Shown here: positions 9,345 to 39,189 of the stretch, piece by piece
Layout of the letters: every line of letters begins with the position of its first letter
How positions within the stretch are numbered: the stretch's first letter is position 1
Assembly (NCBI GenBank): GCA_964387265.1
Contig: CAYLWC010000012.1
Span: forward strand, 2,737 to 66,736
Length of the DNA stretch: 64,000 nt
Origin: an uncultured Vampirovibrionales bacterium
GTDB taxonomy: Bacteria > Cyanobacteriota > Vampirovibrionia > Vampirovibrionales > Vampirovibrionaceae
Reading direction: 5' to 3'
The notes under the pieces: model-generated
The model's database searches: none
The model's input: the letters and a program-made list of their open reading frames with translations, nothing else
What the model was told of the DNA's origin: nothing
Made by a program: the position numbers and the translations under genes

Positions 9345-9494
9345 ACACGTTCTCCTTAACGTCATTCTAAAAGCCACGTCCTTGTGGCATTTTGAGCGAA
9401 AAGAGTTTCTATCATCCGTATCGGACTGTCTCGGCTCCAACTAAAGGGATCCCCGCCTTGTTTTCCTTCAAGTGGAGGAGAAGTAATTTTCGCC

Positions 9495-12157: not shown

Positions 12158-12231
12158 GGCATAGTAGCTCAGTTGGCTAGAGCACGCGGTTCATACCCGC
12201 GGAGTCGCTGGTTCGAATCCAGCCTATGCCA
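12158..12231 (+). tRNA. tRNA-Met, anticodon CAT (elongator type; could alternatively be a lysidine-modified tRNA-Ile2)
   Basis: Cloverleaf hand-folded: acceptor GGCATAG/CTATGCC, D-arm GCTC/GAGC, anticodon stem CGCGG/CCGCG with loop TTCATAC, T-arm GCTGG-TTCGAAT-CCAGC, discriminator A. CCA is not encoded. The anticodon stem lacks the three consecutive G-C pairs of initiator tRNA. Confidence 0.8.
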
Positions 12232-14209: not shown

Positions 14210-15736
14210 TCAGGCCCCGGATGGAGCCGGATTGCTTGGGGCTAAAACAGCATCATACCAGAACTTCTGTTCTCGCGTCCCGATTTCATCCACATGAATA
14301 TGCTTCACTTCCATGTATTCATGCAGGGCCTCTTCACCCAGTTCCCGGCCCAGACCTGATTGCTTGTATCCGCCAAAGGGCGCTTTTTCACTGATTAAAT
14401 GATATTCATTCACCCAGACCGTCCCGGTACGAAGCTGCCGAGCGACCTCCAACGCCTTCTCGGCATCCTGACTCCATACGGCGCCAGATAAGCCATAAGG
14501 GGAATCATTGGCCACCTGTACCGCTTCATCCAAGGTTTTGAATTTGAGAACGGACACCACCGGCCCAAAAATTTCTTCCTGAGCCACCGTCATCGCGTTT
14601 TCCACATCCACAAAGACCGTGGGTTCCACAAAATTCCCCAACTTCAGTTCCGGGTTTGCCGGAGTTCCTCCTCCCAGCACACATCGGGCGCCTTCTTTCT
14701 TGGCCAACTCAATGTAACGCAGGACCCGCTCTTGCTGCTTTTTAGACACCAAAGGCCCCATATCGGTTTCACGGGCAGCCGGATCCCCCAACTGAATTTG
14801 TTTGGCCCGCTCTAAAAAGCGGTTGAGGAACGCATCATAAATACCTTCTTGCAGCAGCAGACGGGTTCCTGCCGTACAACACTGACCGCTGTGGAAAAAC
14901 GCCGCATAGAGCGCCCCATCCACGGCCAGGGTGAGATCGGCATCATCTAAAATGATATTGGCCGATTTCCCGCCCAGCTCCAGCGTGACCCGCTTCAGGC
15001 CATGGCTGGCCTCATGCATGACCTTTTTGCCCACCTCCGTGGAGCCGGTAAAGGCGATTTTATCCACCTGCGGATGCTGGGACAAAGCTGCCCCAGCTTC
15101 TTCCCCCAGGCCGGTGACGATATTCAGCACGCCAGGTGGCAAGTCGGTTTCCGCTACCAGTTTCGCCAGTTCCATCGCCACCGCCGGGGTTTCTTCCGCC
15201 GGTTTGAGCACCACCGTATTTCCAGCCGCCAGAGCCGGGCCAATTTTCCAGATAGCCATTTGCAGCGGAAAGTTCCAGGGAATAATCTGCGCGCACACCC
15301 CTATAGGTTCTCGTACCAAAAGATTCTGGCTGACGCCGTCTTTGGAAAGGGCCTCAATTTTTTGAGTCGTCTCCCGCTTGGCCAGGCGGGCAAAGTAGGC
15401 CAGGTGCTTCCCACTCAGCCAGACTTCCCCTTTGGCTTTACGATAGGTTGAGCCAGATTCCTCAATCATCAGCTTGGTCAGTTCTTTGGAATGCTCATCA
15501 ATTTTTTGGGCAAGCTGGGTCAGGATTTCCCCACGGGCTTCTCCACTCATGGATGGCCAGGGGCCGTGCTCAAAGGCGCGCCTTGCTGCCTGAACCGCTT
15601 TGTCAACATCTGTGGCCTGCCCTCGGGCTACTTTGGCAACCGGTTCCCCGGTAAACGGGTTCACACTGTCAAAAGTCTCGCCCGACACCGCCGGAACAAA
15701 CTGACCGTCAATATACAGTTGATATTCGCGCATCAC
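14210..15736 (-). CDS. NAD(P)-dependent aldehyde dehydrogenase
   Basis: ALDH family signatures (…ELGGKSANIILDDADL…, catalytic Cys region …FFHSGQCCTAGTRLL…). 508 aa. Confidence 0.85.
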   Translation of the reverse strand: MMREYQLYIDGQFVPAVSGETFDSVNPFTGEPVAKVARGQATDVDKAVQAARRAFEHGPWPSMSGEARGEILTQLAQKIDEHSKELTKLMIEESGSTYRKAKGEVWLSGKHLAYFARLAKRETTQKIEALSKDGVSQNLLVREPIGVCAQIIPWNFPLQMAIWKIGPALAAGNTVVLKPAEETPAVAMELAKLVAETDLPPGVLNIVTGLGEEAGAALSQHPQVDKIAFTGSTEVGKKVMHEASHGLKRVTLELGGKSANIILDDADLTLAVDGALYAAFFHSGQCCTAGTRLLLQEGIYDAFLNRFLERAKQIQLGDPAARETDMGPLVSKKQQERVLRYIELAKKEGARCVLGGGTPANPELKLGNFVEPTVFVDVENAMTVAQEEIFGPVVSVLKFKTLDEAVQVANDSPYGLSGAVWSQDAEKALEVARQLRTGTVWVNEYHLISEKAPFGGYKQSGLGRELGEEALHEYMEVKHIHVDEIGTREQKFWYDAVLAPSNPAPSGA

Positions 15737-15812: not shown

Positions 15813-16679
15813 TTAGGCAAAGGAGGATTTTTGCATGCTATCCATAAACAAGCGAATGCGCCACATGCCCTGAGTGATCTCTTTGCGAAACTGCTGCAGC
15901 GCCAATTCTAGCCGTGGCTTAAACAGGTCAAGCAAGGTGGGCTTTAACTGCTGGTATTCCGTCTGGAGTTTAACCAACGCCCCATGTAGCCGTTGCCTAT
16001 CCTCTTTTAAGGGCAGCTTGTCCTGTTCTACCAACGCTCTAAAGAGACGGACCACCTGATTTTTAGCTTCCAAGTGGTGAATTTTTAACAGATCCGGCAG
16101 CGTTTGAGTCGGGAGCGGTGCTTCCAACAATAAAAATAAAGGTTCCTTGAGGGCTGAAATGATTTCAGGGCGCACTAACAGGGTCTTGAGGATCCGATCA
16201 GCCGCTTCTGCCCGGTGTGAGCTGGGGGCGGTAAAATCCTGCACCCGCTGAAAGAACTGCCCATACGTCAGCTGAGGAAACTTTTCTCCATCCAGAATTT
16301 GTCGGCACAATGAGGCGACCGGATTGGAAAGCTCATCTTCCCCTTGATACACTTGCATCCCGTCAATGTATAGGGTCCATATGGGGGGGGTTTCCCAAGA
16401 AACGGTTTCCCACATCAACAAAAACACCGAACCAACCGGATTATCCGGGGTGGAAGGCTGCCAACCCGCCGTCCACTGACACCCGGATTTGCTATAGAGC
16501 AAGTCCAAAGGATCTTCGAACTCAAAGGCCAGCCGGGACCAACGCTCGGTAATGATCTGCCGAATCACATCCGGCGCATCCATTTTTAGCAGAGAGTCCG
16601 GCAAGACGGCGGTCAATAAGCGATCCAGCAACGCGGGAGCCGGTTTCAGAGGCGGTGATTCTAAAGCCAAAGTAGACAT
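15813..16679 (-). CDS. Hypothetical protein
   Basis: 288-aa ORF. No family recognised. Confidence 0.4.
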   Translation of the reverse strand: MSTLALESPPLKPAPALLDRLLTAVLPDSLLKMDAPDVIRQIITERWSRLAFEFEDPLDLLYSKSGCQWTAGWQPSTPDNPVGSVFLLMWETVSWETPPIWTLYIDGMQVYQGEDELSNPVASLCRQILDGEKFPQLTYGQFFQRVQDFTAPSSHRAEAADRILKTLLVRPEIISALKEPLFLLLEAPLPTQTLPDLLKIHHLEAKNQVVRLFRALVEQDKLPLKEDRQRLHGALVKLQTEYQQLKPTLLDLFKPRLELALQQFRKEITQGMWRIRLFMDSMQKSSFA

Positions 16680-16694
16680 AATGCAAGTGTAACC

Positions 16695-16710
16695 ATGTTT
16701 TTTGAAACAT
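16695..16710. promoter_or_regulatory. Perfect palindrome ATGTTT-TTTG-AAACAT, candidate operator
   Basis: Read from the sequence. Lies 16-31 nt upstream of the minus-strand start at 16679 and just downstream of the thiolase gene that ends the catabolic operon. Confidence 0.3.
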
Positions 16711-16767: not shown

Positions 16768-17982
16768 CTAGAGCTTTTCCACGATGGTGGCAATCCCCTG
16801 CCCCACCCCGATACACATGGTGGCAAGGCCATATCGGGCGTCAGGCCGTCGGTGCATTTCATACAAGAGCGTGGTCATAATCCGCGCCCCGGAAGCACCC
16901 AGCGGATGGCCCAAGGCAATGGCACCGCCGTTGGGATTCACCTTGGCCAGATCCAGCCCCAATTCCCGAATACAAGCCAAGGATTGGGCAGCAAAGGCCT
17001 CATTGAGCTCAATCAGATCAATCTGATCTAAACTCAGCCCGGCCCGTTTCAGCGCCTTTTGCGTGGCCGGAATCGGCCCCAACCCCATGCAAGCCGGATC
17101 CACCCCAGCCACCGCCGTGGAGACAATCCGGGCCAAGGGCTTAAATCCCAGCGTTTGGGCTTTTTCTGCGCTCATCATTAATAAGACAGCGGCCCCATCA
17201 TTGATCCCCGAAGCATTTCCCGCGGTGACAGTCCCCCCCTCCCGAAAGGCGGGTTTCAGTTTGGCCAGGGCTTCTAGCGTCGTCTCAGGCCGAGGGTGCT
17301 CATCGGTTTCTACCACAACAGGTGCCCCTTTGCGCTGGGGGATCACCACCGGCACAATCTCGTCTTTAAATTTTCCGGCGGCCATGGCCGCCTGGGTCTT
17401 TTGCTGGCTCTCCAACGCAAACTGATCCTGATCGGCCCGAGAAATCTGGTATCGTTCGGCCACATTTTCCGCGGTTTCCCCCATCCCGTACGGGTAATGG
17501 AGTTTGGCCAGCTTCGGGTTGGTAAAGCGCCAGCCAATGGTGGTGTCATATATTTCGCCGTTTCTGGAAAAGGCAGTCTCCGCTTTGGCCATCACCAAGG
17601 GCGCCCGCGTCATGCTTTCTACCCCGCCCGCCACATAGCAATCGGCTTCTCCGGCTTGAAGGGCATGGGCCACCTGATTGATGGCCATCAACCCGGATCC
17701 ACACAACCGATTCACCGTCCCGCCACCAACAGAAAGAGGATATTTCGCCAAAAGTAAAGCCATTCGGGCCACATTGCGGTTATCTTCCCCGGCCTGATTG
17801 GCGCAACCCAAAATCACATCCTCAATTTCTTCTGGGTTCAACGCCGGATGACGTTTGAGTAATTCCTCTAACAGCAGCGCCGCCAGATCATCGGGCCGCA
17901 CCTCTTTCAGCGCACCCGCATACCGACCAATGGGGGTACGAATGGCATCGACAATAACCGCCTGATTGACCGCTTGATTCAT
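16768..17982 (-). CDS. Acetyl-CoA C-acyltransferase (thiolase), 3-oxoadipyl-CoA thiolase PaaJ/PcaF-like
   Basis: Thiolase motifs (…[12 protein letters not shown]… with active-site Cys, C-terminal …[12 protein letters not shown]…). 404 aa. Confidence 0.85.
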
Positions 17983-18051
17983 TGGGGGGGGGCTGACCTC
18001 GTTGACCTCACTTTTTCAGTAAACCACAAAGACTGTTTGGGAGCGAATCCC

Positions 18052-18780
18052 TCACACCGGCTGATATGTATAAAAGCCCTGGCCGGTTTTCAAGCCCAGC
18101 TGGCCCGACTGCACCTTTTCTTGCAGCAAGCGCATGGGACGATACCGTTCTTCCCGGTAGCTTTGATACAAGTGCTCCAGAACGGAGAGAATCACATCGA
18201 GCCCCGCCTCATCGGCCCAGGCCAACGGACCTTGGGGATAGTTGGTTCCCAGTTTCATGGCCGTATCAATATCGGCTGGAGTGGCCACCCCTTCCATTAG
18301 GGCAGACGTGGCTTCATTGACCAAGAGAGCAACCGTCCGCCCTAAAATCAGACCCGGCGCATCCGGCACCGGCAGACAGGTGAGATTCAGGGCCTCAAAA
18401 AAGTTTTGACCTTGCTCCCAGCAAGCCACATTCCCGGTCGGCGGCGAGGCCAGCTCAATCACCGGGATATCCCGGTACAGGGGAAAAGGGCCATACGCCA
18501 GTGTGGTGGGGTGATAGACCAGCGCTTGATGCGCCGTCATGTTCAGGCCATTGACCAAGAGTAACGTTTCATGATCCAGATCCAAAAAGCGCAAAACCGA
18601 GGGTAAGGCATCGGGGACGCCGATCTGAAGGACCACCTCAAAAGACATTTGGGTCAAGGCTTCCGGGGACTCCTCCGACAACATCACCCAGTCCATTCCC
18701 GCCTGCTGGCATCGCTGCTTGAGGATTCGTGTAATAGGCTCCTGATCATCCCCCAGAAGCAACACCGATTTAGGCGTCAT
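18052..18780 (-). CDS. 3-hydroxyacyl-CoA dehydrogenase C-terminal-domain protein (PaaH C-terminal-extension-like)
   Basis: C-terminal half matches the 3HCDH C-terminal helical domain (…LGTNYPQGPLAWADEAGLDVILSVLEHLY…GFYTY). The N-terminal part lacks the GxGxxG NAD-binding motif. Overlaps the upstream HADH gene by 11 nt. Confidence 0.55.
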   Translation of the reverse strand: MTPKSVLLLGDDQEPITRILKQRCQQAGMDWVMLSEESPEALTQMSFEVVLQIGVPDALPSVLRFLDLDHETLLLVNGLNMTAHQALVYHPTTLAYGPFPLYRDIPVIELASPPTGNVACWEQGQNFFEALNLTCLPVPDAPGLILGRTVALLVNEATSALMEGVATPADIDTAMKLGTNYPQGPLAWADEAGLDVILSVLEHLYQSYREERYRPMRLLQEKVQSGQLGLKTGQGFYTYQPV

Positions 18781-19642
18781 AGCGGTAAAACCCCCGTCCG
18801 GTCTTGCGGCCCAACCAACCGGCTTCCACCATTTTTTGCTGAATAGGATGCGGCCGGTAGCGAGGCTCTTGGAAATAGGCGTTATAGACCGATTGGGTCA
18901 CGGCAAAATTAACATCAATGCCAATCAAATCCATCAGCTCAAACGGTCCCATCCGAAAGCCTCCCGCTTGCTTGAGGACCACATCGATCACCTCAACGGT
19001 TTCCAGCCCGCCCCCCTGTTCACCCAGGAGTTTAAGTGACTCACTGTAAAAGGGCCGGGCCACCCGGTTGACAATAAACCCTGGCGTGTCCTGGGCCAAG
19101 ACCGGGGTTTTCCCCAGGGATTGGGCAAAGGCGGTTAATGCTTCCACCGTCTCTGGCGCCGTTTGCTTGCCTTGAATGACTTCTACCAGCTTCATTAAGG
19201 GCACGGGGTTAAAAAAATGCAAGCCCGCCACGTGTCCAGGACGCCCTGTGGCCCCGCACAAGGCCGTAATGGAAAAAGACGAGGTGTTGCTGGCAAAGTA
19301 GGTTGTTGGTGGGCAGATTTTATCCAACGCCTGAAAGAGCTGCTGCTTTAAGGCCAGGTCTTCCGGCACCGCCTCAATCACCAGATCCACCCCAGCCATG
19401 GCGTTCAGCTCGGTGGTGGGGCGCAAATTCGCTTGAACTTGTTGGATCTCCGCTTCGGTGACCTTCCCTTTGGCCCGGCCCTTTTCCAGAAACGTGTTGA
19501 TGCGCGATTGAGCCCGATCCAGAAACTCGGCCTTGACATCATACAGCACCACCGGATAGCCCGCCTGAGCCGTCACCTGGGCAATACCTGCCCCCATGGT
19601 CCCGGCCCCTAAAACCCCGACGGTGTTAAACCGATTCGTCAT
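18770..19642 (-). CDS. 3-hydroxyacyl-CoA / 3-hydroxybutyryl-CoA dehydrogenase (PaaH/Hbd-like)
   Basis: N-terminal VGVLGAGTMGAGIAQ Rossmann motif followed by the 3HCDH C-terminal domain. 290 aa. Confidence 0.85.
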   Translation of the reverse strand: MTNRFNTVGVLGAGTMGAGIAQVTAQAGYPVVLYDVKAEFLDRAQSRINTFLEKGRAKGKVTEAEIQQVQANLRPTTELNAMAGVDLVIEAVPEDLALKQQLFQALDKICPPTTYFASNTSSFSITALCGATGRPGHVAGLHFFNPVPLMKLVEVIQGKQTAPETVEALTAFAQSLGKTPVLAQDTPGFIVNRVARPFYSESLKLLGEQGGGLETVEVIDVVLKQAGGFRMGPFELMDLIGIDVNFAVTQSVYNAYFQEPRYRPHPIQQKMVEAGWLGRKTGRGFYRYDA

Positions 19643-20426
19643 AATCGGGGGTCCACTCCGGTAACGTCAACCCGGTGCCTTCCAGGGCCTTTTCAATATC
19701 GGCCTTAAAGGCGTTCCGCACCTCGTCATTATCCCGCTTTTTCAGGCCAAACTGCCGATAAATCTTGTTTTTTCGGGAGCCGGGGCGGCCAAAAATATTC
19801 ATGGTTCGAGGGTACCATTTATTGAGCGCCGCTTGCACCTCATCTTTGGTGACCGGATCGGCGGCCAGTTTTCGTACCCAGGTGTCCCCATGATTGACAT
19901 GCATCATTTCTTCTTTAAAGATCCCCTGAATGGTCCGAACCCATGGGGCGTAACTGCAATCGAGGGCATCTTCCAGCTGATGGCCAGCGCCTCGATCCAT
20001 GCAGAAATTAAACATAATAAAATCGGTCCAGGTTTCAATGGGGTAATAAAAGATATTCACCCGCTTGTCGTCTGAAGCCCGCTGAGTCCCCAGATTGGCG
20101 TTTTCATCGGTAATACGCATGCTCAGCGTGTCATCGAGTTTGGCAATCCGCTCATCCACTTCCACACCCAGATCTTTTAGCAACTTGAACATCCGGTAGG
20201 CGTGATTAACCTCATCTTTCACGATTTGGGCCACCAGGAGCTTTTCATGAATATCGGGGGCCTTCTCAATCCAGGGCACATAGCCATACGCCCCCGACAG
20301 TTCTGAATCGGCCTGCTGCAACATCAGGTTCACCAGCGCCTCGCGGTATTCGGCCGGAACCGGCTCATCGGCTTCCACCTTGTAGCCTTGCCGGAGCTTT
20401 TCAACAAACGCCTCTGTCGTCGTCAT
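19626..20426 (-). CDS. PaaA/PaaC-family ferritin-like di-iron oxygenase subunit (phenylacetyl-CoA epoxidase catalytic-subunit-like)
   Basis: By eye, pattern similarity to E. coli PaaA through the di-iron helices (…WIEKAPDIHEKLLVAQIVKDEVNHAYRMFKLL…, …FKEEMMHVNHGDTW…). No paaB/C/D/E genes adjacent. Confidence 0.5.
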   Translation of the reverse strand: MTTTEAFVEKLRQGYKVEADEPVPAEYREALVNLMLQQADSELSGAYGYVPWIEKAPDIHEKLLVAQIVKDEVNHAYRMFKLLKDLGVEVDERIAKLDDTLSMRITDENANLGTQRASDDKRVNIFYYPIETWTDFIMFNFCMDRGAGHQLEDALDCSYAPWVRTIQGIFKEEMMHVNHGDTWVRKLAADPVTKDEVQAALNKWYPRTMNIFGRPGSRKNKIYRQFGLKKRDNDEVRNAFKADIEKALEGTGLTLPEWTPDYDESV

Positions 20427-20459
20427 GGGAGATCCTCCGTGTTTTCTTTCATGATAGCG

Positions 20460-21287
20460 CTATTTACCGCTAAATTGGGCCACCCGTTTTTCCAGAAAGG
20501 CCGAGACCCCTTCCTGGTAATCATCGGTTCGCCCGGCAATTTCCTGAAGGCTGGCCTCATAGCCCAGATACCGTTCCAGTTCCATGCCCATGGCCAGCCG
20601 TACTGCCCGCTTCATCAAGCCCAGCGCCTTGGTGGGCCCCTGGGCCAACTGTTCCGCCAGCACTTGGGTGGTGGCTTTTAGCTCTGTCTCCGGCACCACC
20701 CGGTTGATCAGGCCCCATTGGAGCGCGGTGGGTGCGTCAATTTTCTCCCCCAGCATCATCATCTCCATGGCTCGTCCCAGTCCTGCCAGACGAGGAAGAA
20801 GCCAGCAGGCCCCGGAATCGGGAATCAGGCCGACTTTGACAAAGGCCTGAATCAAGCTGGCCTTTTCAGACGCCACCCGGAGATCGCAGGCAAAGGCTAG
20901 GCTCGCCCCAGCGCCTGCGGCGACGCCATTGATCATGGCAATCACCGGCTTTTCCATCGTATGGAGCTTGTGAATAATGGGGGCGTAACGCTTTTCGATG
21001 GATTCTCCTAAATGCGGCCGTTGTCCATTGGTCGCCCCCACGCTGCGGCTTTTGAGATCTTGCCCCGCGCAAAAGCCTTTGCCGGCCCCGGTCATCACCA
21101 GACAGCGAACCTGCTTGTCTTTTTCCGCTTCTTTCAGGGCCTTTTGCAGCTCGAAGCTCAGCTCATCGTTAAAGGCGTTGAGCGCCTCCGGCCGGTTGAG
21201 GGTCAGCCACAAGACGCCAGAATCATGAACCTCATAGAGCAGGTGTTCATACATCGTGATTGCCCTTTCCTTTATTGTCCCTTCCAA
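20460..21287 (-). CDS. Enoyl-CoA hydratase/isomerase (crotonase fold; PaaG-like)
   Basis: Crotonase motifs (…LNRPEALNAF…, …GAGKGFCAGQDLK…). Confidence 0.75.
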   Translation of the reverse strand: MEGTIKERAITMYEHLLYEVHDSGVLWLTLNRPEALNAFNDELSFELQKALKEAEKDKQVRCLVMTGAGKGFCAGQDLKSRSVGATNGQRPHLGESIEKRYAPIIHKLHTMEKPVIAMINGVAAGAGASLAFACDLRVASEKASLIQAFVKVGLIPDSGACWLLPRLAGLGRAMEMMMLGEKIDAPTALQWGLINRVVPETELKATTQVLAEQLAQGPTKALGLMKRAVRLAMGMELERYLGYEASLQEIAGRTDDYQEGVSAFLEKRVAQFSGK

Positions 21288-22063
21288 GTAGGCTGACGTT
21301 TTTCCATAAAGGCTTTCATGCCTTCTTTCTGGTCTTCGGAGGCAAACAGCAGGTAAAAGAGCTTACGCTCATAATCCAAACCCAGCTCAATGGTGGTGTC
21401 AAAGGCTTTTAAAATCGCCTCTTTACCCAAACGCACCGCCATGGCCGGTTTCGTGGCAATGGTTTTTGCTAAAGCCTGAGCTTCTTCCAGACAAAGTTCC
21501 GGCATCACCACCTTGTTAATGAGGCCCATCTCCAGGGCTTCCTGGGCGCTAAACTGACGACCGGTTAAAATCAACTCCATGGCCTTGGCTTTTCCCACCG
21601 CTCGAGTGAGCCGTTGTGTGCCTCCAGCGCCCGGAATCACCCCAATACCAATTTCCGGCTGGCCAAAGCGGGCGGTTTCTCCGGCGATAATCATGTCACA
21701 CATCATCGCCAGTTCACACCCACCCCCCAAGCAAAAGCCATTGACCGCCGCAATGACCGGCTTTTTCAGTTTCCGGATCCGGTCCCAGCGGGCCAGTTGA
21801 TCTTGGATCAGCATATCCATCGCCGAGGCTTCCGCCATCCGCTTAATATCGGCCCCGGCGGCAAAGGCCCGCTCATTGCCGGTAATCACCAGGCAACCAA
21901 TGGCAGGATCCTGTTCAAAGGCTTCTAAAGCATCCACCAGTTCCGCCATCAGATCCGGGCTGAGCGCGTTTAAGGCCTCTGGGCGATTGAGCTGGAGAAC
22001 CCCTACCCCATCGGCCTGATGGACCAGGATGTATTGATATTGCGTGGTTGTCACCGCCATCAC
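21272..22063 (-). CDS. Enoyl-CoA hydratase (crotonase fold; PaaF-like)
   Basis: …LNRPEALNAL…ITGNERAFAAGADIKRM… Overlaps the neighbouring gene by 16 nt. Confidence 0.75.
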   Translation of the reverse strand: MMAVTTTQYQYILVHQADGVGVLQLNRPEALNALSPDLMAELVDALEAFEQDPAIGCLVITGNERAFAAGADIKRMAEASAMDMLIQDQLARWDRIRKLKKPVIAAVNGFCLGGGCELAMMCDMIIAGETARFGQPEIGIGVIPGAGGTQRLTRAVGKAKAMELILTGRQFSAQEALEMGLINKVVMPELCLEEAQALAKTIATKPAMAVRLGKEAILKAFDTTIELGLDYERKLFYLLFASEDQKEGMKAFMEKRQPTWKGQ

Positions 22064-22079
22064 TCAACTCCCCCTGTGA

Positions 22080-22967
22080 TTACTGCTTCAAGTTTTCCCG
22101 AATTTGACGATAGTTGGTTTTCCGCTTTTCCACAAACGCGGAGGCGCCCTCAATGGCCTCCTCACTGCCTGCATGGATACTCAGCCAGTCCCGAGCATGG
22201 CTGATGGTCATCCCCCAGGAAAAATCCCGCCAAAAGTTCAGCTGTTGCTTGGTATAGCGGGTGCATTCCGGCAGTTTATCCAGCAGTTTGTCGGCCATGG
22301 CTTCTACCGCTTCATCGAGCTTTTCTCGGGGCACCACTTGATTGACCCAGCCCCACTCCAGGGCCTTTTGCGCCGGGAACTCTTCACACAATAAGAGAAT
22401 CTCTCTTGCCCGGCGATCGCCCACAATCAACGGCAGCCACTGGGTGGCCCCGGCTGCGGCGACTGAGCCATGAGCGGCGCCCACCTGGCGCAGGTAAATA
22501 TCATCGGCGGCAATGGCCAGATCACAAGCGATATTCAGCTCATTACCCCCACCCACCACAATGCCGTTAAGCCGGGCAATGGTGGGTTTGCCAAAATTCC
22601 GGAGCTTTTCATGGAGATCGATAAAGCCGCCCATCCACTTCCAGTAGTCTCGGGGGCGCTCGCCAAAGTACTCATACTGCTCTTTCATATCGGCCCCCGT
22701 ACAAAAGGCCTTGTCCCCAGCCCCGGTTAAAATCAACACCCCCACCTCATCGTCCCAGGAGGCGTCTTCCAACGCGCGGGTAATCTCTTTAAAGCTTTGG
22801 AAGTTAAACGCGTTGTAGCGTTCCGGGCGGTTGAGGGTAATCTTGGCCCGACCGTTGTATTTCTCATAAATAATGCTTTCAAAGCCAAACGAATCCGGCT
22901 GTTGGGGTTGAATTCCCGGATGTTTCACTTTTTGTTGGGTCATATCAGGACACCTCAGCCGGGACAA
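22080..22967 (-). CDS. MenB/BadI-family crotonase (1,4-dihydroxy-2-naphthoyl-CoA synthase-like / 2-ketocyclohexanecarboxyl-CoA hydrolase-like)
   Basis: By eye, pattern similarity to MenB (…GGGNELNIACDLAIAADD…QVG…GS…AREILLLCEEFPAQKALEWGWVNQVVP…AFVEKRK…). No other men genes in the window. Confidence 0.55.
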   Translation of the reverse strand: MSRLRCPDMTQQKVKHPGIQPQQPDSFGFESIIYEKYNGRAKITLNRPERYNAFNFQSFKEITRALEDASWDDEVGVLILTGAGDKAFCTGADMKEQYEYFGERPRDYWKWMGGFIDLHEKLRNFGKPTIARLNGIVVGGGNELNIACDLAIAADDIYLRQVGAAHGSVAAAGATQWLPLIVGDRRAREILLLCEEFPAQKALEWGWVNQVVPREKLDEAVEAMADKLLDKLPECTRYTKQQLNFWRDFSWGMTISHARDWLSIHAGSEEAIEGASAFVEKRKTNYRQIRENLKQ

Positions 22968-23271
22968 TGGGCTCTGCCGTCAGCATGGTAATGTTTTTAG
23001 CGGCAAAGCTCATAATATTAGCCCCGGCGGCTTGGCCTTCAGGAGATTTCATGGCCGCTTTCAAGGACTCCATGCTGTCAAAATACATTTCCGCCATCAT
23101 GTAGTAAGGAGAATCCCCGCCCATGAAATTGCCTCGAAACTTGGTCACTTCCACCTGTTTGAGCCCCGGCATTTTTTTTACCAGCGGCACATGGACCTCA
23201 AAATACTCTTGATCAAACGATGCCGGATCGGCCGGATGGGTGTAGAGCGCAATCAACTTGGCACGGGCCAT
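22945..23271 (-). CDS. EthD-domain protein (stress-responsive alpha/beta-barrel family)
   Basis: Internal ATG with a strong SD (CAGGGAGGGAATATAAAAATG). About 108 aa with an EthD-like pattern. Confidence 0.5.
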   Translation of the reverse strand: MARAKLIALYTHPADPASFDQEYFEVHVPLVKKMPGLKQVEVTKFRGNFMGGDSPYYMMAEMYFDSMESLKAAMKSPEGQAAGANIMSFAAKNITMLTAEPIVPAEVS

Positions 23272-23351
23272 TTTTATATTCCCTCCCTGAAATAAGACAT
23301 TTCCACTTGAGCCGATATTGTCGCACAAACACCAGGCCCTCTACAAGCCAC

Positions 23352-24242
23352 TTAGAGCAGGCTCGGGAAGCCGGATAACTGGACTTCCAACTGCCGGGCA
23401 AATCGCTCCAGAGCAGCACGCGTCACCGTCATACAAGCCGATGAAGAGGTCACCGCCCCTTTCTCTTGAGCCGGGATCATCAGATTCAAGCTGACCTGCA
23501 CGTCCGATCCCTGGGTTATTGCCTGCACCTGCAACACCGACTCTAAAAAGTCGCTCCGAAAATCATCCGTTCCCCGATTTATCACCTGTATCAGCCCCTG
23601 AATTAGCTCTTCCACTTCATAACGCAGCAGAAACGGGGCTTTGTACAAAAGCTCCGGCTGGTCTTCCTGGAAGAGCGTCATTTCACACACCAACCATTCA
23701 TCATAGCGGGTACAAGGCAAGCGGCTTTCCCACTTCAGCAAGACCAAGCCAAACTGGGTTTTACCATCCCGGCTATCCAGAATAGCCCGGTCCACTCCCG
23801 CATCATACAAGCTTGATTCGCTTAAACCCTCGCTGGCTTGACTTTTATCGGAGACAGCCGGAATCACCCCAGCATATAAAGCCGCCACTTGCACCAAGCC
23901 TTGTACTACTGTGCCTTCCCCCACCAGGGTGTTTTCATGCCAGACGGCCACTTGGCTGGTCACACGCTTTGGCTCAATCAGGGTCACGGTGGATTGAATG
24001 CGAAGTTTTGCCCCCAGCGGTGCAGATGCGCGATGATGGACATCCACATGCGCTCCCACCCCTTCCTCACCCGGTTCCAGATACGGTAGAATATGCTGTC
24101 GGGCCGCCCATTCCATATGATAGACCATGGCTGAAGTAGCATACAGCGGATGCACCGGCTGTCCTTCAAATTGAGCCAACATGTCCTCGGTCACGACGGC
24201 CTGAAGCTCAACCTGATGACCCACTAATAATCCCGCTTTCAT
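23352..24242 (-). CDS. Two-domain protein: N-terminal hotdog-fold thioesterase-like domain plus C-terminal domain of unknown function
   Basis: N-terminal segment (…VHPLYATSAMVYHMEWAARQHILPYLEPGEEGVGAHVDVHHRASAPLG…) resembles 4HBT/FlK-type acyl-CoA thioesterases. The C-terminal ~150 aa is unassigned. Confidence 0.45.
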   Translation of the reverse strand: MKAGLLVGHQVELQAVVTEDMLAQFEGQPVHPLYATSAMVYHMEWAARQHILPYLEPGEEGVGAHVDVHHRASAPLGAKLRIQSTVTLIEPKRVTSQVAVWHENTLVGEGTVVQGLVQVAALYAGVIPAVSDKSQASEGLSESSLYDAGVDRAILDSRDGKTQFGLVLLKWESRLPCTRYDEWLVCEMTLFQEDQPELLYKAPFLLRYEVEELIQGLIQVINRGTDDFRSDFLESVLQVQAITQGSDVQVSLNLMIPAQEKGAVTSSSACMTVTRAALERFARQLEVQLSGFPSLL

Positions 24243-24247
24243 AGTCC

Positions 24248-25543
24248 CTATCCCTCCTCTCTCCGGTAGGCCTCCGCCAAAATCTCAATGGGATGGCGCA
24301 CCGACATGAGAATCCCCAGTTGCTGGAGCCCATGGGCAATTTGCAACATGCACCCTGGGTTCCCAGTCACCACCGTCTCAGCACCGGTTTGCTCATAGAG
24401 ATTTTTCAGGTGCTCAATTTTTCCGGCCAAAATCTCCTGACTCAGAACCGGGTGCTCAATGTTATACACTCCCGCACTGCCGCAGCAGGCGTCAAATTCA
24501 GTCAGCGGTACCAGGGTCAGCCCTGGCACTTGGGCCAGCAAGCGAACGGGCTCCTCTTTGATTTTTTGCACATGGTACAGGTGACAGGCGGCATGATAGG
24601 TCAGGGTTTTTTTCAGGGGCTTTGCAAACGGCTTCAGCTTACGTTTGGCCAACAGTTCCATAACATCCACCACTTTGGCGGAAAACTCCCGGACCCGGTC
24701 CCGATACAGTTCGGCCAACAACTGCTCATACGCCTTCATCGTCGAGCCGCATCCAGCGGAGTTCACCACAATCCATTTGAGGTTATGATCCAACAACAGC
24801 TTCAGATTCTGAAGAGCCAGCTCACGGGTAATATCCGTCTCTCCAGCATGATGCCCCAAGGCGCCGCAGCAGGTTTGTTCAGGAATCGTGACAAAATACC
24901 CGTTGGCCACCAGCACCTCGATGGTATCCCAATGGACCGGGTTATAAAATACGTCCATGACGCAGCCGGTAAAAAGTGCGACTTTTTCCCCGGACGGATT
25001 CCCAAAGGTCATGCCCGCTTCCAACTTTTTGATCTCAGGGATTTCCGGTAACAGCGCTTCTCGAATCGCCATGCCAGGAAGCAATTTCAGGATGCCCGTC
25101 TTTCGAAGCACCCTTTGCAGACCGCTCTTTTGATAAAAGCGGAGCAAGGATCCCAGCCTCATCAGCAAAGAATGATTGGGCAGGATGTGTTTTAAGATCC
25201 AGCGTTTCACCCATCGTTGAAGCGATCGGTTTTCCTGGTTTAACGCCTCCCGGCTGGCAATCAACAATTCTCCATAATGCACCCCAGACGGACAGGCGGT
25301 TTCACAGGCATGACATGCTAAACAGGGATCCAGATGGCGGGAGAGTTGCTGAGGATCAGACAACTCCCCTTCCAGCATACTACGCATCAGATACAGACGC
25401 CCTCGGGGAGATTCCGCCTCTGACCCCGTCACACGGTATGTCGGACACGCTGATAAACACATGCCACAATGAATACAAGCTTTCAGCTTATCCAATTCCA
25501 GGTTTAAATTCATTTTTGGGGGGTGGGACATCTCATTATCCAT
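24248..25543 (-). CDS. glcF: Fe-S oxidoreductase, GlcF-like (glycolate oxidase iron-sulfur subunit family)
   Basis: N-terminal 2x[4Fe-4S] motifs (CIHCGMCLSACPTY… CLACHACETACP). Two CCG cysteine-rich domains. Confidence 0.7.
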   Translation of the reverse strand: MDNEMSHPPKMNLNLELDKLKACIHCGMCLSACPTYRVTGSEAESPRGRLYLMRSMLEGELSDPQQLSRHLDPCLACHACETACPSGVHYGELLIASREALNQENRSLQRWVKRWILKHILPNHSLLMRLGSLLRFYQKSGLQRVLRKTGILKLLPGMAIREALLPEIPEIKKLEAGMTFGNPSGEKVALFTGCVMDVFYNPVHWDTIEVLVANGYFVTIPEQTCCGALGHHAGETDITRELALQNLKLLLDHNLKWIVVNSAGCGSTMKAYEQLLAELYRDRVREFSAKVVDVMELLAKRKLKPFAKPLKKTLTYHAACHLYHVQKIKEEPVRLLAQVPGLTLVPLTEFDACCGSAGVYNIEHPVLSQEILAGKIEHLKNLYEQTGAETVVTGNPGCMLQIAHGLQQLGILMSVRHPIEILAEAYRREEG

Positions 25544-25546
25544 TTT

Positions 25547-26764
25547 TTATACCAGGGGGAGCATGCGACTGACCAGGATCTGTTGGGGATCATAGCTGAG
25601 TTTAATCCGGGACATCCACTGTCGAAGCACCCGATCAGAAGGCAAGTTATACAGACGCACCAGAGACTCGTATGGTTCCAGACATTTTAAAATCCGAAAT
25701 ACCGCACCCCAAGTAACAGCAGCCCTAGATAGTTCCTCCAGGGCCTTTTCTAAATCCGATGGCAGCGGCAAGTGTTCTATCCAAACCATCGTTATCAAGC
25801 TAGCCGCCGGTCGTATAAAAATCTGATCCGGTTGACACGGACTGGCCTCCATCTGTTCCAGCGCCGCATGCACTTTTCCGTCTGGCAACGCCATTTCGAT
25901 TATCAATGGCGCATTCCAACTAGCTTGCCACCGCTCAAATAACGTCTGTTCCTCATGTTTTTTCAAAGGTTGGGCCCCCACACTGCCTAGGTCCAGCCCA
26001 CCCAAGACGGATCCCGCCTCTTTCAACACCGACGCTTCCCCAGCCATCCGCAGATAAAGCTGAGCTGCAGCCCCCGAATCAGCATACACTTCGCATTGGG
26101 TCAACGGGAGCGCCTCGTTTAAAATCCGGGTGGCCGCATTCAGGGCTTTTTCTGGATAATCAAAGCCAAATACCCAACTCTTTCGCGCTGCCGCCTTCGC
26201 CTTGAGCTTTAAGACAACAGCGGTCATCACGCCCAACATGTGGTAACTGCCCACGTACAACTTATTAAAATCATACCCGGCCACGTTTTTGACCACTTGC
26301 CCACCGCTATGGGTAATCAGCCCATCAGGGGTAGCAATTTCCAAGCCCAGCACCCAGTCTCTGGGATAACCATACAAGCCAGCTTCCAACGCCAGGCACT
26401 CTTCCGCCAAAATATCGGATACGGTCCAATCCGGCGGGTAGCTGTGCGGAAAGACTTGCTGATGCTGGGCGGTGATTTTTTCCAGCGCACTAGCGGTGAT
26501 ACCCGTTTCCACATGGAGCGTCAGATCTTCTGCCCGATAAGACCGGACGGCGCACAGATCCGATAAGTCCAACCAAAACGGCGTTGCCATTTTTTGCGCT
26601 TCATACCACGATACGGCCATAGGAACCTGCCGGTCCGCAGCCTGCTTTAACAGCTGAGCGACTTGTTCAGCCGTTTGAGGCCGGGCACGCCAACCGTCTT
26701 TCCCGGTCAAGGTCATGGGCTCTACCGGAAAGTCCAGACTTGTCAAAGGACAGGCTAAATCCAT
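25547..26764 (-). CDS. glcE: FAD-binding PCMH-type oxidase subunit, GlcE-like
   Basis: Divergent FAD-binding domain. Sits between glcD-like and glcF-like genes with small overlaps. Confidence 0.55.
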   Translation of the reverse strand: MDLACPLTSLDFPVEPMTLTGKDGWRARPQTAEQVAQLLKQAADRQVPMAVSWYEAQKMATPFWLDLSDLCAVRSYRAEDLTLHVETGITASALEKITAQHQQVFPHSYPPDWTVSDILAEECLALEAGLYGYPRDWVLGLEIATPDGLITHSGGQVVKNVAGYDFNKLYVGSYHMLGVMTAVVLKLKAKAAARKSWVFGFDYPEKALNAATRILNEALPLTQCEVYADSGAAAQLYLRMAGEASVLKEAGSVLGGLDLGSVGAQPLKKHEEQTLFERWQASWNAPLIIEMALPDGKVHAALEQMEASPCQPDQIFIRPAASLITMVWIEHLPLPSDLEKALEELSRAAVTWGAVFRILKCLEPYESLVRLYNLPSDRVLRQWMSRIKLSYDPQQILVSRMLPLV

Positions 26765-28275
26765 AACCCCTCTCCTGCTTTCATGGTATGGGTTAATGCC
26801 GTATGGGTTTCCCCGCAGCCTTTTCGAATGGGGAAGATCTTGGCCGGGTTGGCCAGATTTTTAGGATCAAAGAGCGCCTTAAACCGCTTCATCCGTGTAA
26901 GATCATCTTCTGAAAAAATCCGGTCCATGAACGCCGATTTTTCAATCCCAATGCCATGTTCCCCGCTCAGTGTCCCGCCAACTTCCAGGCACACGTTCAG
27001 GATTTCATACCCACCCGCCAACACCCGTTGGACCATCTCCGCATCATCCGGGTCAAACAGAATATTGGGGTGCAGATTCCCATCACCCGCATGAAACACG
27101 TTACCAATGAGCATCCGGTATTCGGCCCCAATTTCATGAATCCGGCGCAGTACATAGGTCAGCTCGCTCCGGGGAATCACACAATCATGCAAATAAAACG
27201 CTGGCTGATATCGCCCATAAGCCGCCACAGCCCCTTTTCTAGCGGCCCAAAGGGCTTGACGCTCTTGCTCGGTCTCTCCTACCTGAACCTGGATCACTTC
27301 GTGCTGCTCCAAAATCTGTCGGAGCCGCTGTTCTACCTGATTCACCTGCCAGTGGGGCCCATCCAGCTCAATGAGCAAGACCGCCTCACATTGTTCTGGG
27401 AAACCCACCTGAAAGGCTTCATTCACGGCTTTTACGGTAAAGGCATCCATAAATTCCAGTGCCGAAGGGGTCAGCTCTGATTGAATCAGGGTTGCAACCG
27501 TATCTGTCGCTTGGGCCACTTGATCAAACGCGGCCAAAAAGACCCGGATAGTTTGAGGCACAGGGGTTAATCGCACAATTGCCTGGGTGACAATCCCCAA
27601 TGTCCCTTCGGATCCCACCATCACCCCCACTAGGTTTAAACCATGGGCACGCCGGGTTTTTGAACCCACCCAGACCACCGACCCATCCGGCAACACCACC
27701 TCTAGGGCCAGCACATGATCGGTGGTCACCCCGTACTTAATACAATGAATACCGCCTGCGTTCTCGGCAATATTCCCTCCAATAGTACAGGCCGATTGGC
27801 TGGAGGGATCCGGGGCGTAAAATAACCCATGGGGCGCAAGTTCCCGGTTAAGCCAGGCGTTTACCACCCCAGGCTCCACCATGGCCGTGCGGTTTTCAAT
27901 ATCCAGTTCCCGGATCCGGTTCATCCGACTCAAGCTGATGATCACACCGCCTTCAACCGGCAATGCCCCACCTGATAAACCCGTCCCTGCACCCCGTGCC
28001 ACAAAGGGGATCTGGTATTGATGACATAACTGGACTGTCAAAGCCACTTCTTCCGTGGTGGCTGGCAGCACCACCAGATCCGGTCTGGTTTTGATTAAGG
28101 TACAGGCATCGCACTCATAGACCAACAGCTCCTCAGGCTGATCCAGGACAAAGCGACGGCCCAACTTCTGCCGCAGGGGTTGAATCAACCGATCCACCGG
28201 GTATTTTGAACGCGCTTGTGACATCCGACCCGCCTTTTTATATTCGAACGCAAACTGCCTCCTCAGGCAGCTCAA
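26755..28275 (-). CDS. glcD: FAD-linked oxidase GlcD-like (glycolate / D-2-hydroxyacid dehydrogenase family)
   Basis: FAD-binding-4 domain (…VARGAGTGLSGGALP…) and C-terminal FAD-oxidase domain. The start may be the internal Met (MSQARSKY…). Confidence 0.75.
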   Translation of the reverse strand: MSCLRRQFAFEYKKAGRMSQARSKYPVDRLIQPLRQKLGRRFVLDQPEELLVYECDACTLIKTRPDLVVLPATTEEVALTVQLCHQYQIPFVARGAGTGLSGGALPVEGGVIISLSRMNRIRELDIENRTAMVEPGVVNAWLNRELAPHGLFYAPDPSSQSACTIGGNIAENAGGIHCIKYGVTTDHVLALEVVLPDGSVVWVGSKTRRAHGLNLVGVMVGSEGTLGIVTQAIVRLTPVPQTIRVFLAAFDQVAQATDTVATLIQSELTPSALEFMDAFTVKAVNEAFQVGFPEQCEAVLLIELDGPHWQVNQVEQRLRQILEQHEVIQVQVGETEQERQALWAARKGAVAAYGRYQPAFYLHDCVIPRSELTYVLRRIHEIGAEYRMLIGNVFHAGDGNLHPNILFDPDDAEMVQRVLAGGYEILNVCLEVGGTLSGEHGIGIEKSAFMDRIFSEDDLTRMKRFKALFDPKNLANPAKIFPIRKGCGETHTALTHTMKAGEGLWI

Positions 28276-28438: not shown

Positions 28439-29023
28439 ATGCCCCCATCTCACGCAACTCAACAGTCCTGCGCCCGACATCCGGCCATCGACACCCGTTT
28501 AACTTGTAGCAGCTGCGAAACCCCCATCTGCCCCCAGTGCATGGTGATGACCGAAGTGGGTCTCAAATGCCCGGCTTGCACGGGCAAAATCACCACCCAC
28601 CTCACCCAGCTCTCTCCCTGGCTATTGATCACTGGCACCAGCCTGGCCGCCTTGTTTGGCTTTGTCTACGGTCACGTGTATCCACTCATACTGAATATTG
28701 GGTTTATCGCCATTTTTGGGGTGCCTGTTCTGGGGCTCATACTCTGCTATCTACTGGGTGGGGGCTGCGGACGTCTGTTGCATCGAGCCGTTCAACACAA
28801 GCAAGGGCGGACGCTGTTTTGGGCCGTCACCGCCGGGGGGCTCGGCGGGTTTTTCTTTAGCCCGCTGGCAGGGGTCTTGCTGGATGGGCTCAATATCTTA
28901 CTGATGGTTCCTGACCTCCTCAAATCCGGCACCTCCAGCCAGTTTATCCTCTGGCGGCTGATCATTCACCTGCTGGCAGCCAGCTTGTTTCTCCGGGGGT
29001 TACAAAGCCCCATTCGTTTTTAG
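28439..29023 (+). CDS. Zinc-ribbon-containing membrane protein, hypothetical
   Basis: N-terminal CSSC…CPQC…CPAC cysteine pairs followed by about 4 hydrophobic helices. Confidence 0.4.
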   Translation: MPPSHATQQSCARHPAIDTRLTCSSCETPICPQCMVMTEVGLKCPACTGKITTHLTQLSPWLLITGTSLAALFGFVYGHVYPLILNIGFIAIFGVPVLGLILCYLLGGGCGRLLHRAVQHKQGRTLFWAVTAGGLGGFFFSPLAGVLLDGLNILLMVPDLLKSGTSSQFILWRLIIHLLAASLFLRGLQSPIRF

Positions 29024-32866: not shown

Positions 32867-32898
32867 GGTAACTTAAAGGGAAGAGGCTACCACCGCAG

Positions 32899-34106: not shown

Positions 34107-34120
34107 GGAAGAGGGAAGCT

Positions 34121-34285: not shown

Positions 34286-34308
34286 GCAAAGAGGTTTGGA
34301 TCTTGCCG

Positions 34309-36011: not shown

Positions 36012-36013
36012 TT

Positions 36014-38021: not shown

Positions 38022-38036
38022 GGAAGGAGTCATCAG

Positions 38037-39176: not shown

Positions 39177-39189
39177 GGTTTTTGCAACA

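Follow-up and report, generated by a model that had tools for sequence, protein, structure and literature searches.

A probable phenylacetate-type catabolic cluster with a solitary PaaA-like di-iron protein, joined to glcDEF genes, in an uncultured Vampirovibrionales bacterium

Organization of the gene block

The 64,000-nucleotide stretch analyzed here (hereafter the window) comes from an uncultured Vampirovibrionales bacterium (assembly GCA_964387265.1, contig CAYLWC010000012.1, positions 2,737 to 66,736 of the forward strand). Its list of open reading frames (ORFs) contains a tight run of 12 co-directional genes on the minus strand at window positions 16768-28275, with junctions between adjacent genes ranging from -17 to +80 nucleotides (nt), which we propose, with a probability of roughly three in four, to be a catabolic cluster for phenylacetate of the paa type joined head-to-tail to a glcDEF dehydrogenase operon. 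Profile searches with the Pfam and NCBIfam models recovered every family that had been named for this block in an original prediction made from the nucleotide sequence, namely GlcD, GlcE and GlcF, a hotdog thioesterase fusion protein, an EthD-family protein, three crotonases, a member of the PaaA_PaaC family, a dehydrogenase split between two genes and a thiolase (Table 1); that prediction had counted thirteen genes in the span, one too many. The three crotonase genes are contiguous and are followed by the PaaA-like gene. First-start ORF calls of GlcD, EthD and the MenB-like crotonase made use of upstream TTG codons (giving 26755-28275, 22945-23328 and 22080-22967, respectively); the likely true starts are at 28224, 23271 and 22943, the ATG at 28224 fitting the length of the GlcD relatives in an ORF that can be extended to the TTG at 28275. 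A conserved order on the same strand, common to related genomes, runs on downstream of the block through the genes for a 288-residue protein, a stand-alone aldehyde dehydrogenase (ALDH) and LptC.

Table 1. Features of the gene block and its surroundings (positions in the window; paired bit scores are those of the product and of the model cut-off; CoA, coenzyme A; identities are to E. coli proteins where these are named)
Feature	Position	Strand	Evidence or remark
tRNA	12158-12231	+	sole Rfam match in the window
LptC	13585-14154	-	directly after the ALDH gene of the paa set; adjacency kept in 7 related loci
Stand-alone ALDH	14210-15736	-	Pfam Aldedh, 608 bits; below every NCBIfam equivalog cut-off
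Tryptophan-rich 288-residue protein	15813-16679	-	between thiolase and ALDH
Short AT-rich inverted repeat	16695-16710	.	no sign of function
PaaJ/PcaF 3-oxoadipyl-CoA thiolase	16768-17982	-	reciprocal best match, E. coli PaaJ, 62%
Second PaaH piece, degenerate dehydrogenase repeat	18052-18780	-	residues 134-222 are 54% identical to PaaH 378-466
PaaH-like 3-hydroxyadipyl-CoA dehydrogenase, catalytic part (NAD-binding and C-terminal domains)	18770-19642	-	reciprocal best match, 51% to E. coli PaaH 1-287
Solitary PaaA-like di-iron oxygenase, 266 residues	19626-20426	-	Pfam PaaA_PaaC, 135 bits
PaaG-like 1,2-epoxyphenylacetyl-CoA isomerase	20460-21287	-	reciprocal best match, E. coli PaaG, 51%; top model TIGR02280, 321 vs 345 bits
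PaaF-like 2,3-dehydroadipyl-CoA hydratase	21272-22063	-	reciprocal best match, E. coli PaaF, 46%; 330 vs 371 bits
MenB/BadI-like crotonase	22080-22943	-	proposed ring-opening oxepin-CoA hydrolase, in place of the PaaZ hydratase domain
EthD-family small protein	22945-23271	-	Pfam EthD; TIGR02118, 102 vs 30.5 bits
FlK-type hotdog acyl-CoA thioesterase (residues 1-120) with WapI-like domain (160-293)	23352-24242	-	Pfam FlK, 109 bits; WapI, 38 bits
GlcF-like Fe-S subunit, 2x[4Fe-4S] and two CCG domains	24248-25543	-	Fer4; GlcF model, 249 vs 333 bits
GlcE-like FAD-binding subunit	25547-26764	-	FAD_binding_4; GlcE model, 93 vs 284 bits
GlcD-like FAD-linked 2-hydroxy-acid dehydrogenase subunit	26755-28224	-	FAD_binding_4 and FAD-oxidase_C; glcD model, 512 vs 568 bits

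Paa-type enzymes of the lower pathway

A central route by which phenylalanine, styrene and other aromatics are degraded, the paa pathway is usually detected in genomes via its PaaA-PaaC epoxidase pair. Reciprocal BLAST comparisons of the window genes with the paa cluster of E. coli K-12 (L003) gave reciprocal best matches to PaaF, PaaG, PaaH and PaaJ at 46-62% identity, which bears out the paaF/G/H/J logic that had been read into the block at the outset. The PaaG, PaaF and PaaH models rank top or near-top for the corresponding window genes, and the thiolase scores above the NCBIfam cut-offs for 3-oxoadipyl-CoA thiolases (619 versus 605 and 611 versus 597 bits). PaaH is represented by two genes that overlap by 11 nt: the product of the first matches positions 4-288 of the 507 positions of PRK08268, and that of the second, in which only a C-terminal domain is recognizable, matches positions 347-496. 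As the same two-gene arrangement recurs in 20 of the 80 loci examined below, it represents a conserved split and no frameshift.

The thioesterase has its best PDB match in 2cwz (E = 4e-20), the structure of TTHA0967 from Thermus thermophilus (PMC2903362). TTHA0967 is encoded in a PaaR-repressed operon of that organism together with PaaI and the phenylacetyl-CoA ligase PaaK (PMC6651687), such that a thioesterase of the FlK type has already been seen in a paa operon; by homology, the window protein is probably a CoA-rescue enzyme comparable to PaaI or PaaY. The WapI-like (“immunity protein”) domain that is fused to the FlK thioesterase (23352-23762) is present again as a fusion in one related locus (L088) and missing in another (L086), and in a third (L001) an unrelated gene, for a 205-residue protein with no detectable similarity to the WapI-like domain, comes next after the thioesterase gene.

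A solitary PaaA-like di-iron protein

What is known in this block is the logic of the paa pathway, and what is non-standard is its oxygenase, its ring-opening step, for which there is no PaaZ, and its entry step, for which there is no PaaK nearby. The oxygenase candidate attains 130 bits on the NCBIfam PaaA model (TIGR02156; cut-off 280), 58 bits on that of PaaC and 34 bits on that of BoxB; its identity to E. coli PaaA is 27%, and the equivalog cut-off is not reached. All six metal ligands (E42, E72/H75, D144 and E173/H176), which follow the Glu, Glu-x-x-His, Asp, Glu-x-x-His pattern of a ferritin-like four-helix-bundle di-iron site, are present, invariant in a 21-member alignment and aligned to the ligands of PaaA, with E42, E72 and H75 bearing the same numbering as in the E. 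coli protein; the equivalent columns of PaaC read T/L/Q/D/A/H. An AlphaFold2 (AF2) model computed from the 21-member alignment has a predicted local distance difference test score (pLDDT) of 89.8, and its best PDB folds are, in order, PaaA of the PaaAC complex (template modeling score, TM, of 0.80), SSO1313 (4mud), PaaC (TM 0.70), BoxB and the aldehyde-deformylating oxygenases.

The protein is about 45 residues shorter than PaaA, with alignments stopping near residue 250-260 of the 309 residues of the latter, and has a loop at residues ~100-128 that is peculiar to its family and highly conserved there (R104, G113, R116, D120 and R122-Y128 being invariant); this loop is also the least confident part of the AF2 model. 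Furthermore, the window family has Tyr49 and Ile68 where the examined representatives of the PaaA clade have Glu49 and Lys68. In a rough neighbor-joining distance tree covering the nearest 150 representatives of 50%-identity clusters, canonical PaaA makes up a 13-tip clade of its own from which the window family is excluded (Glu49 and Lys68 are present in the 12 tips that cover this region, the other tip being an N-terminal fragment), and the window family is nested within a separate 90-tip assemblage of short (215-290 residues) PaaA-like proteins, most of which keep the six ligands. Profiles, ligands and fold therefore place the protein within the PaaA/PaaC family, the membership that the original prediction had singled out for checking, and specifically on its catalytic PaaA side. 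Automated annotation labels the solitary proteins plainly as “PaaA” or “PaaI”.

Conserved gene neighborhoods across phyla

A scan of one genome per species recovered 395 loci with a relative of the solitary protein, and we analyzed the best 80 of these (57-80% identity), using the window proteins, the E. coli Paa proteins and PaaK and PaaX from Chloroflexia as BLAST queries to annotate 10 kb on either side of each. These 80 loci come from at least seven phyla and include Vampirovibrionales, Sericytochromatia, Chloroflexia, Rokubacteria/Methylomirabilota, Elusimicrobia, Acidobacteria, Binatia and others, with the closest relatives (75-80%) occurring in metagenome-assembled genomes (MAGs) of Melainabacteria/Vampirovibrionales that have their gene order in common with the window. 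At least one paa-type neighbor is present in 71 of the 80. The most frequent neighbor is a PaaG-like enzyme (44 loci), followed by PaaH-like (42) and PaaF-like (39) enzymes, ALDH (32, across phyla), EthD (26), PaaK (25), the thiolase (23), the MenB-like crotonase (17), GlcDEF (10) and PaaX (7). The PaaK genes, all of which are from other phyla, are adjacent to the oxygenase gene and often translationally coupled to it.

Distinct lineages show characteristic arrangements: PaaX-PaaK-EthD-PaaG-PaaA-like in Chloroflexia (7 loci), overlapping PaaK-PaaA-like genes in Rokubacteria/Methylomirabilota, ALDH-PaaF-PaaG-PaaA-like-PaaH in Elusimicrobia, and EthD-MenB-like crotonase-PaaF-PaaG-PaaA-like-PaaH-PaaJ-ALDH in Sericytochromatia. 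On the PaaK model (cut-off 646), the neighboring ligases reach 542-603 bits, with the next family at no more than 184 bits, and the neighboring PaaX proteins score 237 bits (cut-off 265). As relatives with 57-66% identity in Chloroflexia, Rokubacteria/Methylomirabilota and other phyla adjoin PaaK or PaaX without any GlcDEF, phenylacetyl-CoA itself is indicated as the substrate. The same searches returned zero matches to PaaB, PaaC, PaaD or PaaE at E <= 0.01 in the 64 kb window, in agreement with the lone PaaA-like subunit seen originally, and likewise zero within 10 kb of the 80 loci; the MaoC half of PaaZ also had no BLAST match in the window or at these loci. Based on this contextual information, taken together with the conservation of the ligands and fold, we propose that the solitary protein is a phenylacetyl-CoA ring 1,2-epoxidase that would work without PaaB, PaaC, PaaD and PaaE, and the most economical reading of the solitary clade as a whole is that it supplies the ring oxygenase of a paa pathway dispensing with these subunits.

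A few loci have taxonomic labels that look out of place given their genes: a PaaK-PaaA-like-PaaI locus carries an archaeal label that appears inconsistent (L072, Nitrosotalea sp.), and two loci labeled as photosynthetic cyanobacteria (L006, Coleofasciculaceae; L007, Oculatellaceae) are 77-78% identical to Vampirovibrionales loci and have the same gene order as these. Binning contamination is possible in these three MAG loci.

A probable replacement for PaaZ

The third crotonase (22080-22943) finds its best models in BadI (TIGR03210; 199 bits versus a cut-off of 468), MenB (187-197 versus 343-380 bits) and Oah, all far below the respective cut-offs, and its best PDB relatives are MenB enzymes; one of the three crotonases is thus MenB/BadI-like, as had been noted from the sequence. 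In an alignment with E. coli MenB (L091), the positions Tyr97, Asp163 and Tyr258 (E. coli numbering), which from the MenB literature we take to be catalytic, are replaced by R, A and A in the window protein, and non-MenB residues occupy them in 17 of 17 relatives. Its low MenB score and these replacements indicate that it is no 1,4-dihydroxy-2-naphthoyl-CoA synthase. Window annotation also found no men genes in the 64 kb, so that the possibility raised alongside the original prediction, namely that the enzyme might be a bona fide MenB, finds no backing in scores, residues or surroundings.

Proteins 62-86% identical to this crotonase occur in paa-type clusters of five phyla. In all 17 of the 80 loci that possess it, EthD is encoded directly upstream, with a gap of -4 to +16 nt (the negative values, at Sericytochromatia loci, being artefacts of the ORF caller), and the same arrangement is seen in the window, where the two genes are translationally coupled, and in L086, L088, L092 and L093. 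The EthD protein of the window is related to BH0200 of Bacillus halodurans (PDB 2ftr; E = 1e-26); its candidacy as a hidden PaaB was rejected, the profile-profile probability being below 1%. Two of the loci just mentioned, from Armatimonadota (L092, 8001-15278) and Bacteroidota (L093, 8001-16309), display EthD-MenB-like crotonase (62-63%)-PaaF-PaaG-PaaH-PaaJ, with an ALDH following in L092, and no PaaA-like gene inside, so that the EthD/crotonase pair goes along with the lower pathway rather than with the solitary PaaA-like protein. The paa cluster of Exiguobacterium sp. RIT 594 has canonical paaABCD and an EthD-family gene, followed by genes for an enoyl-CoA hydratase and an ALDH (PMC9416434). 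Together with the two modules lacking an oxygenase, this implies that EthD, a crotonase and an ALDH recur in paa clusters devoid of PaaZ, whichever type of oxygenase they contain.

In light of these associations, we propose that the pair of EthD and the MenB/BadI-like crotonase, along with the separate ALDH, probably replaces PaaZ: the crotonase, possibly with EthD, would open oxepin-CoA, and the ALDH, which is 26% identical to the ALDH domain of PaaZ, would act as the 3-oxo-5,6-dehydrosuberyl-CoA semialdehyde dehydrogenase in place of that domain. An alternative for the latter is a phenylacetaldehyde dehydrogenase. In Chloroflexia EthD instead precedes the PaaG-like crotonase, and in view of this order EthD may have a role at the epoxide/oxepin stage or in support of the oxygenase.

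The GlcDEF unit and alternative interpretations

The glcD, glcE and glcF genes follow one another in the order of the three-subunit GlcDEF enzyme, with a 10-nt overlap and then a 3-nt gap. Relatives of GlcD in related genomes (54-70% identity) all belong to Vampirovibrionales/Melainabacteria, and GlcE is fast-evolving, with 27-38% identity between related loci in which GlcD stands at 61-69%. Among the 80 loci, GlcDEF is linked to paa genes in 10, all from Vampirovibrionales. In GCA_035285165.1 (contig JAYKHP010000006.1; L087 and L088) the cluster is found in two halves separated by about 12 kb, of which one reads epimerase-MutY-DJ-1/PfpI gene-Zn-ribbon membrane protein-69-residue ORF-GlcDEF-FlK/WapI-EthD-three crotonases and the other PaaA-like-PaaH1-PaaH2-PaaJ-ALDH-LptC; in the window, too, glcD has the epimerase, MutY and Zn-ribbon genes upstream of it. 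The best GlcD matches from Vampirovibrionales that are more distantly related (57% and 56%) belong to stand-alone GlcDEF or GlcDE sets with no paa genes nearby. We infer that GlcDEF is probably an older, independent 2-hydroxy-acid dehydrogenase operon of the glycolate or D-lactate type, to which the paa genes became attached in a single subclade. The junction of only 5 nt between glcF and the thioesterase gene points to probable co-transcription of glcDEF with the paa genes, so that the two sets may be functionally linked.

The block had originally been read as having GlcDEF and the lone oxygenase as its upper part, acting on an aromatic or alicyclic 2-hydroxy acid. In its most explicit form, this would have GlcDEF catalyze the first step of the pathway, with an aromatic D-2-hydroxy acid such as D-phenyllactate or mandelate being converted to the 2-oxo acid and on to an aryl-acyl-CoA that would feed the downstream genes. 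Such a route would account for the close glcF-thioesterase junction and for the persistence of the glcDEF, FlK, EthD and crotonase genes as a unit even where the cluster is split; its oxo-acid path to phenylacetyl-CoA would explain the missing PaaK near the Vampirovibrionales clusters, the three Glc subunits all fall below the glycolate-oxidase equivalog cut-offs, and a gene of the 4-oxalocrotonate-tautomerase family just upstream of glcD in L001 offers a weak hint in the same direction. However, that tautomerase gene is absent from the window, neither the cluster nor the window encodes a 2-oxo-acid decarboxylase or oxidoreductase, and in every other phylum (70 of the 80 loci) GlcDEF does not accompany the oxygenase family and the paa module, the relatives linked to PaaK and PaaX being among these loci. 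As GlcDEF or GlcDE also stands alone, with no paa genes, in the more distant Vampirovibrionales (the 57% and 56% matches), this route is weakly supported, and we consider it unlikely. A variant in which GlcDEF serves as the missing reductase, passing electrons from a 2-hydroxy acid via the Fe-S clusters of GlcF to the di-iron oxygenase independently of NAD(P)H, would make sense of an oxygenase that lacks a dedicated reductase and of the probable co-transcription; the same 70 loci with an oxygenase and no GlcDEF, the occurrence of GlcDEF by itself elsewhere, and its retention in the split genome beside the crotonases and away from the oxygenase make this the least probable of the options, and a decidedly far-fetched one.

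The substrate of the solitary protein might also be a different thioester, such as benzoyl-CoA in a minimal Box-like system, a substituted phenylacetyl-CoA or an alicyclic acyl-CoA, with the MenB/BadI-like crotonase opening the corresponding ring. The low identity to PaaA (27%) and the missing Glu49/Lys68 pair leave room for this, as does the fact that the best models of the third crotonase (BadI, MenB and Oah) describe ring-cleaving enzymes of alicyclic and benzoyl-CoA metabolism; moreover, it is established that the lower steps from dehydroadipyl-CoA are common to the Box and Paa pathways. Yet family members with ~60% identity are coupled to PaaX and to ligases that are clearly of the PaaK type (542-603 versus at most 184 bits), the most frequent neighbor is a PaaG-type isomerase, the BoxB model gives a mere 34 bits, and BoxA- and BoxC-like genes are not present, such that this alternative appears quite improbable.

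Several observations also weigh against the assignment that we favor, namely a phenylacetate cluster joined to a glcDEF operon. A CoA ligase, PaaK or other, is absent from the 64 kb window and from within 10 kb of the Vampirovibrionales and Sericytochromatia loci, leaving the entry of phenylacetate into the pathway unexplained. Clustering of 497 neighboring ORFs, among them spurious ones from high-GC loci, revealed no family common to different phyla and no reductase or ferredoxin conserved beside the solitary oxygenase in any lineage; we infer that its electron donor is probably a general ferredoxin or flavoprotein. PaaF, PaaG, PaaH, PaaK and PaaX all fall below their NCBIfam equivalog cut-offs, PaaG, PaaF and PaaH by 7-45%. 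The three crotonases score 122-204 bits on the model for “oxepin-CoA hydrolase, alternative type”, for which the cut-off is 300, and the ALDH is a generic class-1/2-like enzyme whose best models are betaine-aldehyde dehydrogenase (BADH) and HpaE, with the phenylacetaldehyde dehydrogenase StyD also scoring high. The 5-nt glcF-thioesterase junction is not explained by a purely accidental neighborhood of the two gene sets, and the functional claims rest throughout on homology and gene context in uncultured genomes.

Proposed pathway and comparison with known systems

The reaction sequence that we propose for the phenylacetate cluster is modeled on the established pathway of E. coli and Pseudomonas. 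Phenylacetyl-CoA would be provided by a ligase or another route encoded outside the window and be epoxidized at ring positions 1,2 by the solitary PaaA-like protein, upon which the PaaG-like crotonase would isomerize the epoxide to oxepin-CoA. The EthD/MenB-BadI-like crotonase pair would then open the ring hydrolytically and the stand-alone ALDH would oxidize the resulting semialdehyde, these two steps replacing PaaZ. Subsequent β-oxidation-like steps by PaaJ, PaaG, PaaF, the two-piece PaaH and PaaJ again would yield succinyl-CoA and acetyl-CoA, and the FlK-type thioesterase might free CoA from dead-end thioesters. A bolder version of this proposal holds that the ~265-residue solitary PaaA-like proteins are distinct, self-sufficient and probably homodimeric phenylacetyl-CoA epoxidases that draw on a non-dedicated electron donor and replace PaaABCDE in many uncultured phyla, and that the EthD/crotonase pair is a new oxepin-CoA ring-opening system replacing PaaZ; we offer this as a tentative hypothesis, to which we would give clearly less than even odds.

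In comparison with the canonical paa clusters of E. coli K-12 and Pseudomonas putida, the window shares the PaaF/G/H/J counterparts (46-62%), a PaaA-family di-iron protein with equal ligands and fold, and a hotdog thioesterase in the cluster, and relatives of the window cluster in other phyla additionally share PaaK and PaaX. Unlike them, it lacks PaaB, PaaC, PaaD, PaaE, PaaZ and PaaK; its oxygenase has 266 in place of 309 residues, without the C-terminal ~50 residues or the Glu49/Lys68 pair of PaaA and with an extra loop; and it has a two-gene PaaH, the added EthD and MenB-like crotonase, a separate ALDH and glcDEF upstream. The Firmicutes-type clusters with EthD resemble it in that PaaZ and PaaE give way to EthD, an enoyl-CoA hydratase and a stand-alone ALDH (PMC9416434), but keep canonical PaaA, PaaB, PaaC and PaaD, whereas the window has only the solitary PaaA-like protein. 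The best PDB sequence match of the latter is SSO1313 of Sulfolobus solfataricus (4mud; E = 2.5e-22), which is likewise uncharacterized and has a short PaaA-like ferritin fold (TM 0.71/0.84); it differs in its size (235 residues), its low identity (26%) and its position on another branch of the short PaaA-like assemblage.

The Box system (BoxAB, BoxC and BoxD) offers a further parallel in its di-iron acyl-CoA ring epoxidase, ring cleavage by a member of the crotonase family, ALDH and dehydroadipyl-CoA steps. However, BoxB has ~475 residues and resembles the window oxygenase weakly (34 bits; TM 0.64-0.71 over part of BoxB), a match on account of which we rejected a Box-type pathway; the window also has neither a BoxA reductase nor a BoxC-type enzyme, and the ligases that neighbor the oxygenase elsewhere are of the PaaK type. 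MenB and BadI, the best-scoring subfamilies for the third crotonase, perform C-C bond chemistry on cyclic acyl-CoAs; the window protein departs from them in its scores far below the cut-offs, its replacement of MenB Tyr97, Asp163 and Tyr258, the absence of men genes from its surroundings and its constant pairing with EthD in paa-type clusters.

Other features of the window

The 288-residue protein encoded between the thiolase and ALDH genes is restricted to one Vampirovibrionales subclade, in which its relatives at 8 loci are 25-36% identical and the flanking enzymes 65-75% identical. Its invariant residues include W47, W69, W73, W95 and W101; it has no match in Pfam or NCBIfam and no PDB match by profile search, and its single-sequence AF2 model has a pLDDT of 46. 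We rejected it as a hidden PaaC, the profile-profile probability being below 1%. Just downstream of the thiolase gene, what had been described as a perfect palindrome (16695-16710) is in fact ATGTTT-TTTG-AAACAT, with 6-bp arms and a 4-nt spacer; such 6-4-6 inverted repeats occur 18 times in the window versus ~15.6 expected, i.e. at chance level. It is imperfect, not terminator-like and not kept in 8 related loci, and we rejected it as a terminator or operator.

Divergent from glcD, a gene at 28439-29023 (+) codes for a 194-residue protein with an N-terminal Cys-rich zinc-ribbon (a weak B-box match) and several predicted membrane helices, whose position is kept in L088 and which could be a membrane-bound regulator; no PaaX-type regulator is encoded in the 64 kb window. 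Elsewhere in the window, the gene content agrees with a flagellated, respiring diderm of the Vampirovibrionales/Melainabacteria (flagellins, flagellar export, lipopolysaccharide transport, cbb3-type oxidase, cytochrome b and MutY). Tandem flagellin genes at 6846-7772 and 8448-9440 (-) and a FliP-FliR-FlhB-FlhA export block within 47995-53180 (+) are consistent with a motile Vampirovibrio-like organism. Genes for LptA-like, LptB and LptF/G proteins are found at 43652-46810 (+), 30 kb from that for LptC. A respiratory set at 31460-39597 (+) comprises cbb3-type oxidase subunit I, a FixO/cytochrome c fusion, a further cytochrome c and two cytochrome b-like genes, one of them fused to a 2x[4Fe-4S] ferredoxin domain, along with an FlpD/MvhD-like protein (39190-39597, +) that is unusual beside an aerobic chain. 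Finally, an LdpA-like Fe-S protein is encoded at 57935-59056 (-); LdpA is a redox-input protein of the cyanobacterial circadian clock, and its homolog here is from a non-photosynthetic relative of cyanobacteria.

Conclusions

Both the clade of one-protein oxygenases and the pair of EthD and its crotonase are widespread, uncharacterized and open to direct testing. Our literature searches returned no paper dealing with solitary PaaA proteins, with EthD in connection with PaaA, or with the occurrence of paa genes in Melainabacteria/Vampirovibrio or Chloroflexi, and a 2026 survey that proposes PaaA and PaaC as markers of the pathway mentions neither Chloroflexi, Cyanobacteria or Melainabacteria nor EthD (PMC13186573). 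Should the solitary proteins prove to be working epoxidases, the degradation of phenylacetate is going unnoticed in Vampirovibrionales, Sericytochromatia, Chloroflexia, Rokubacteria/Methylomirabilota, Elusimicrobia and Acidobacteria. A multicomponent di-iron oxygenase in single-protein form would make it easier to establish what PaaB, PaaC, PaaD and PaaE contribute, and would be a simpler enzyme for biocatalysis. The pairing of EthD with a crotonase offers a concrete and testable role for a family labeled “function unknown” ever since its first description, which, if true, would be its first defined biochemical role. For the predatory, non-photosynthetic relatives of cyanobacteria, the cluster would add the catabolism of aromatic amino acids to their known metabolism.

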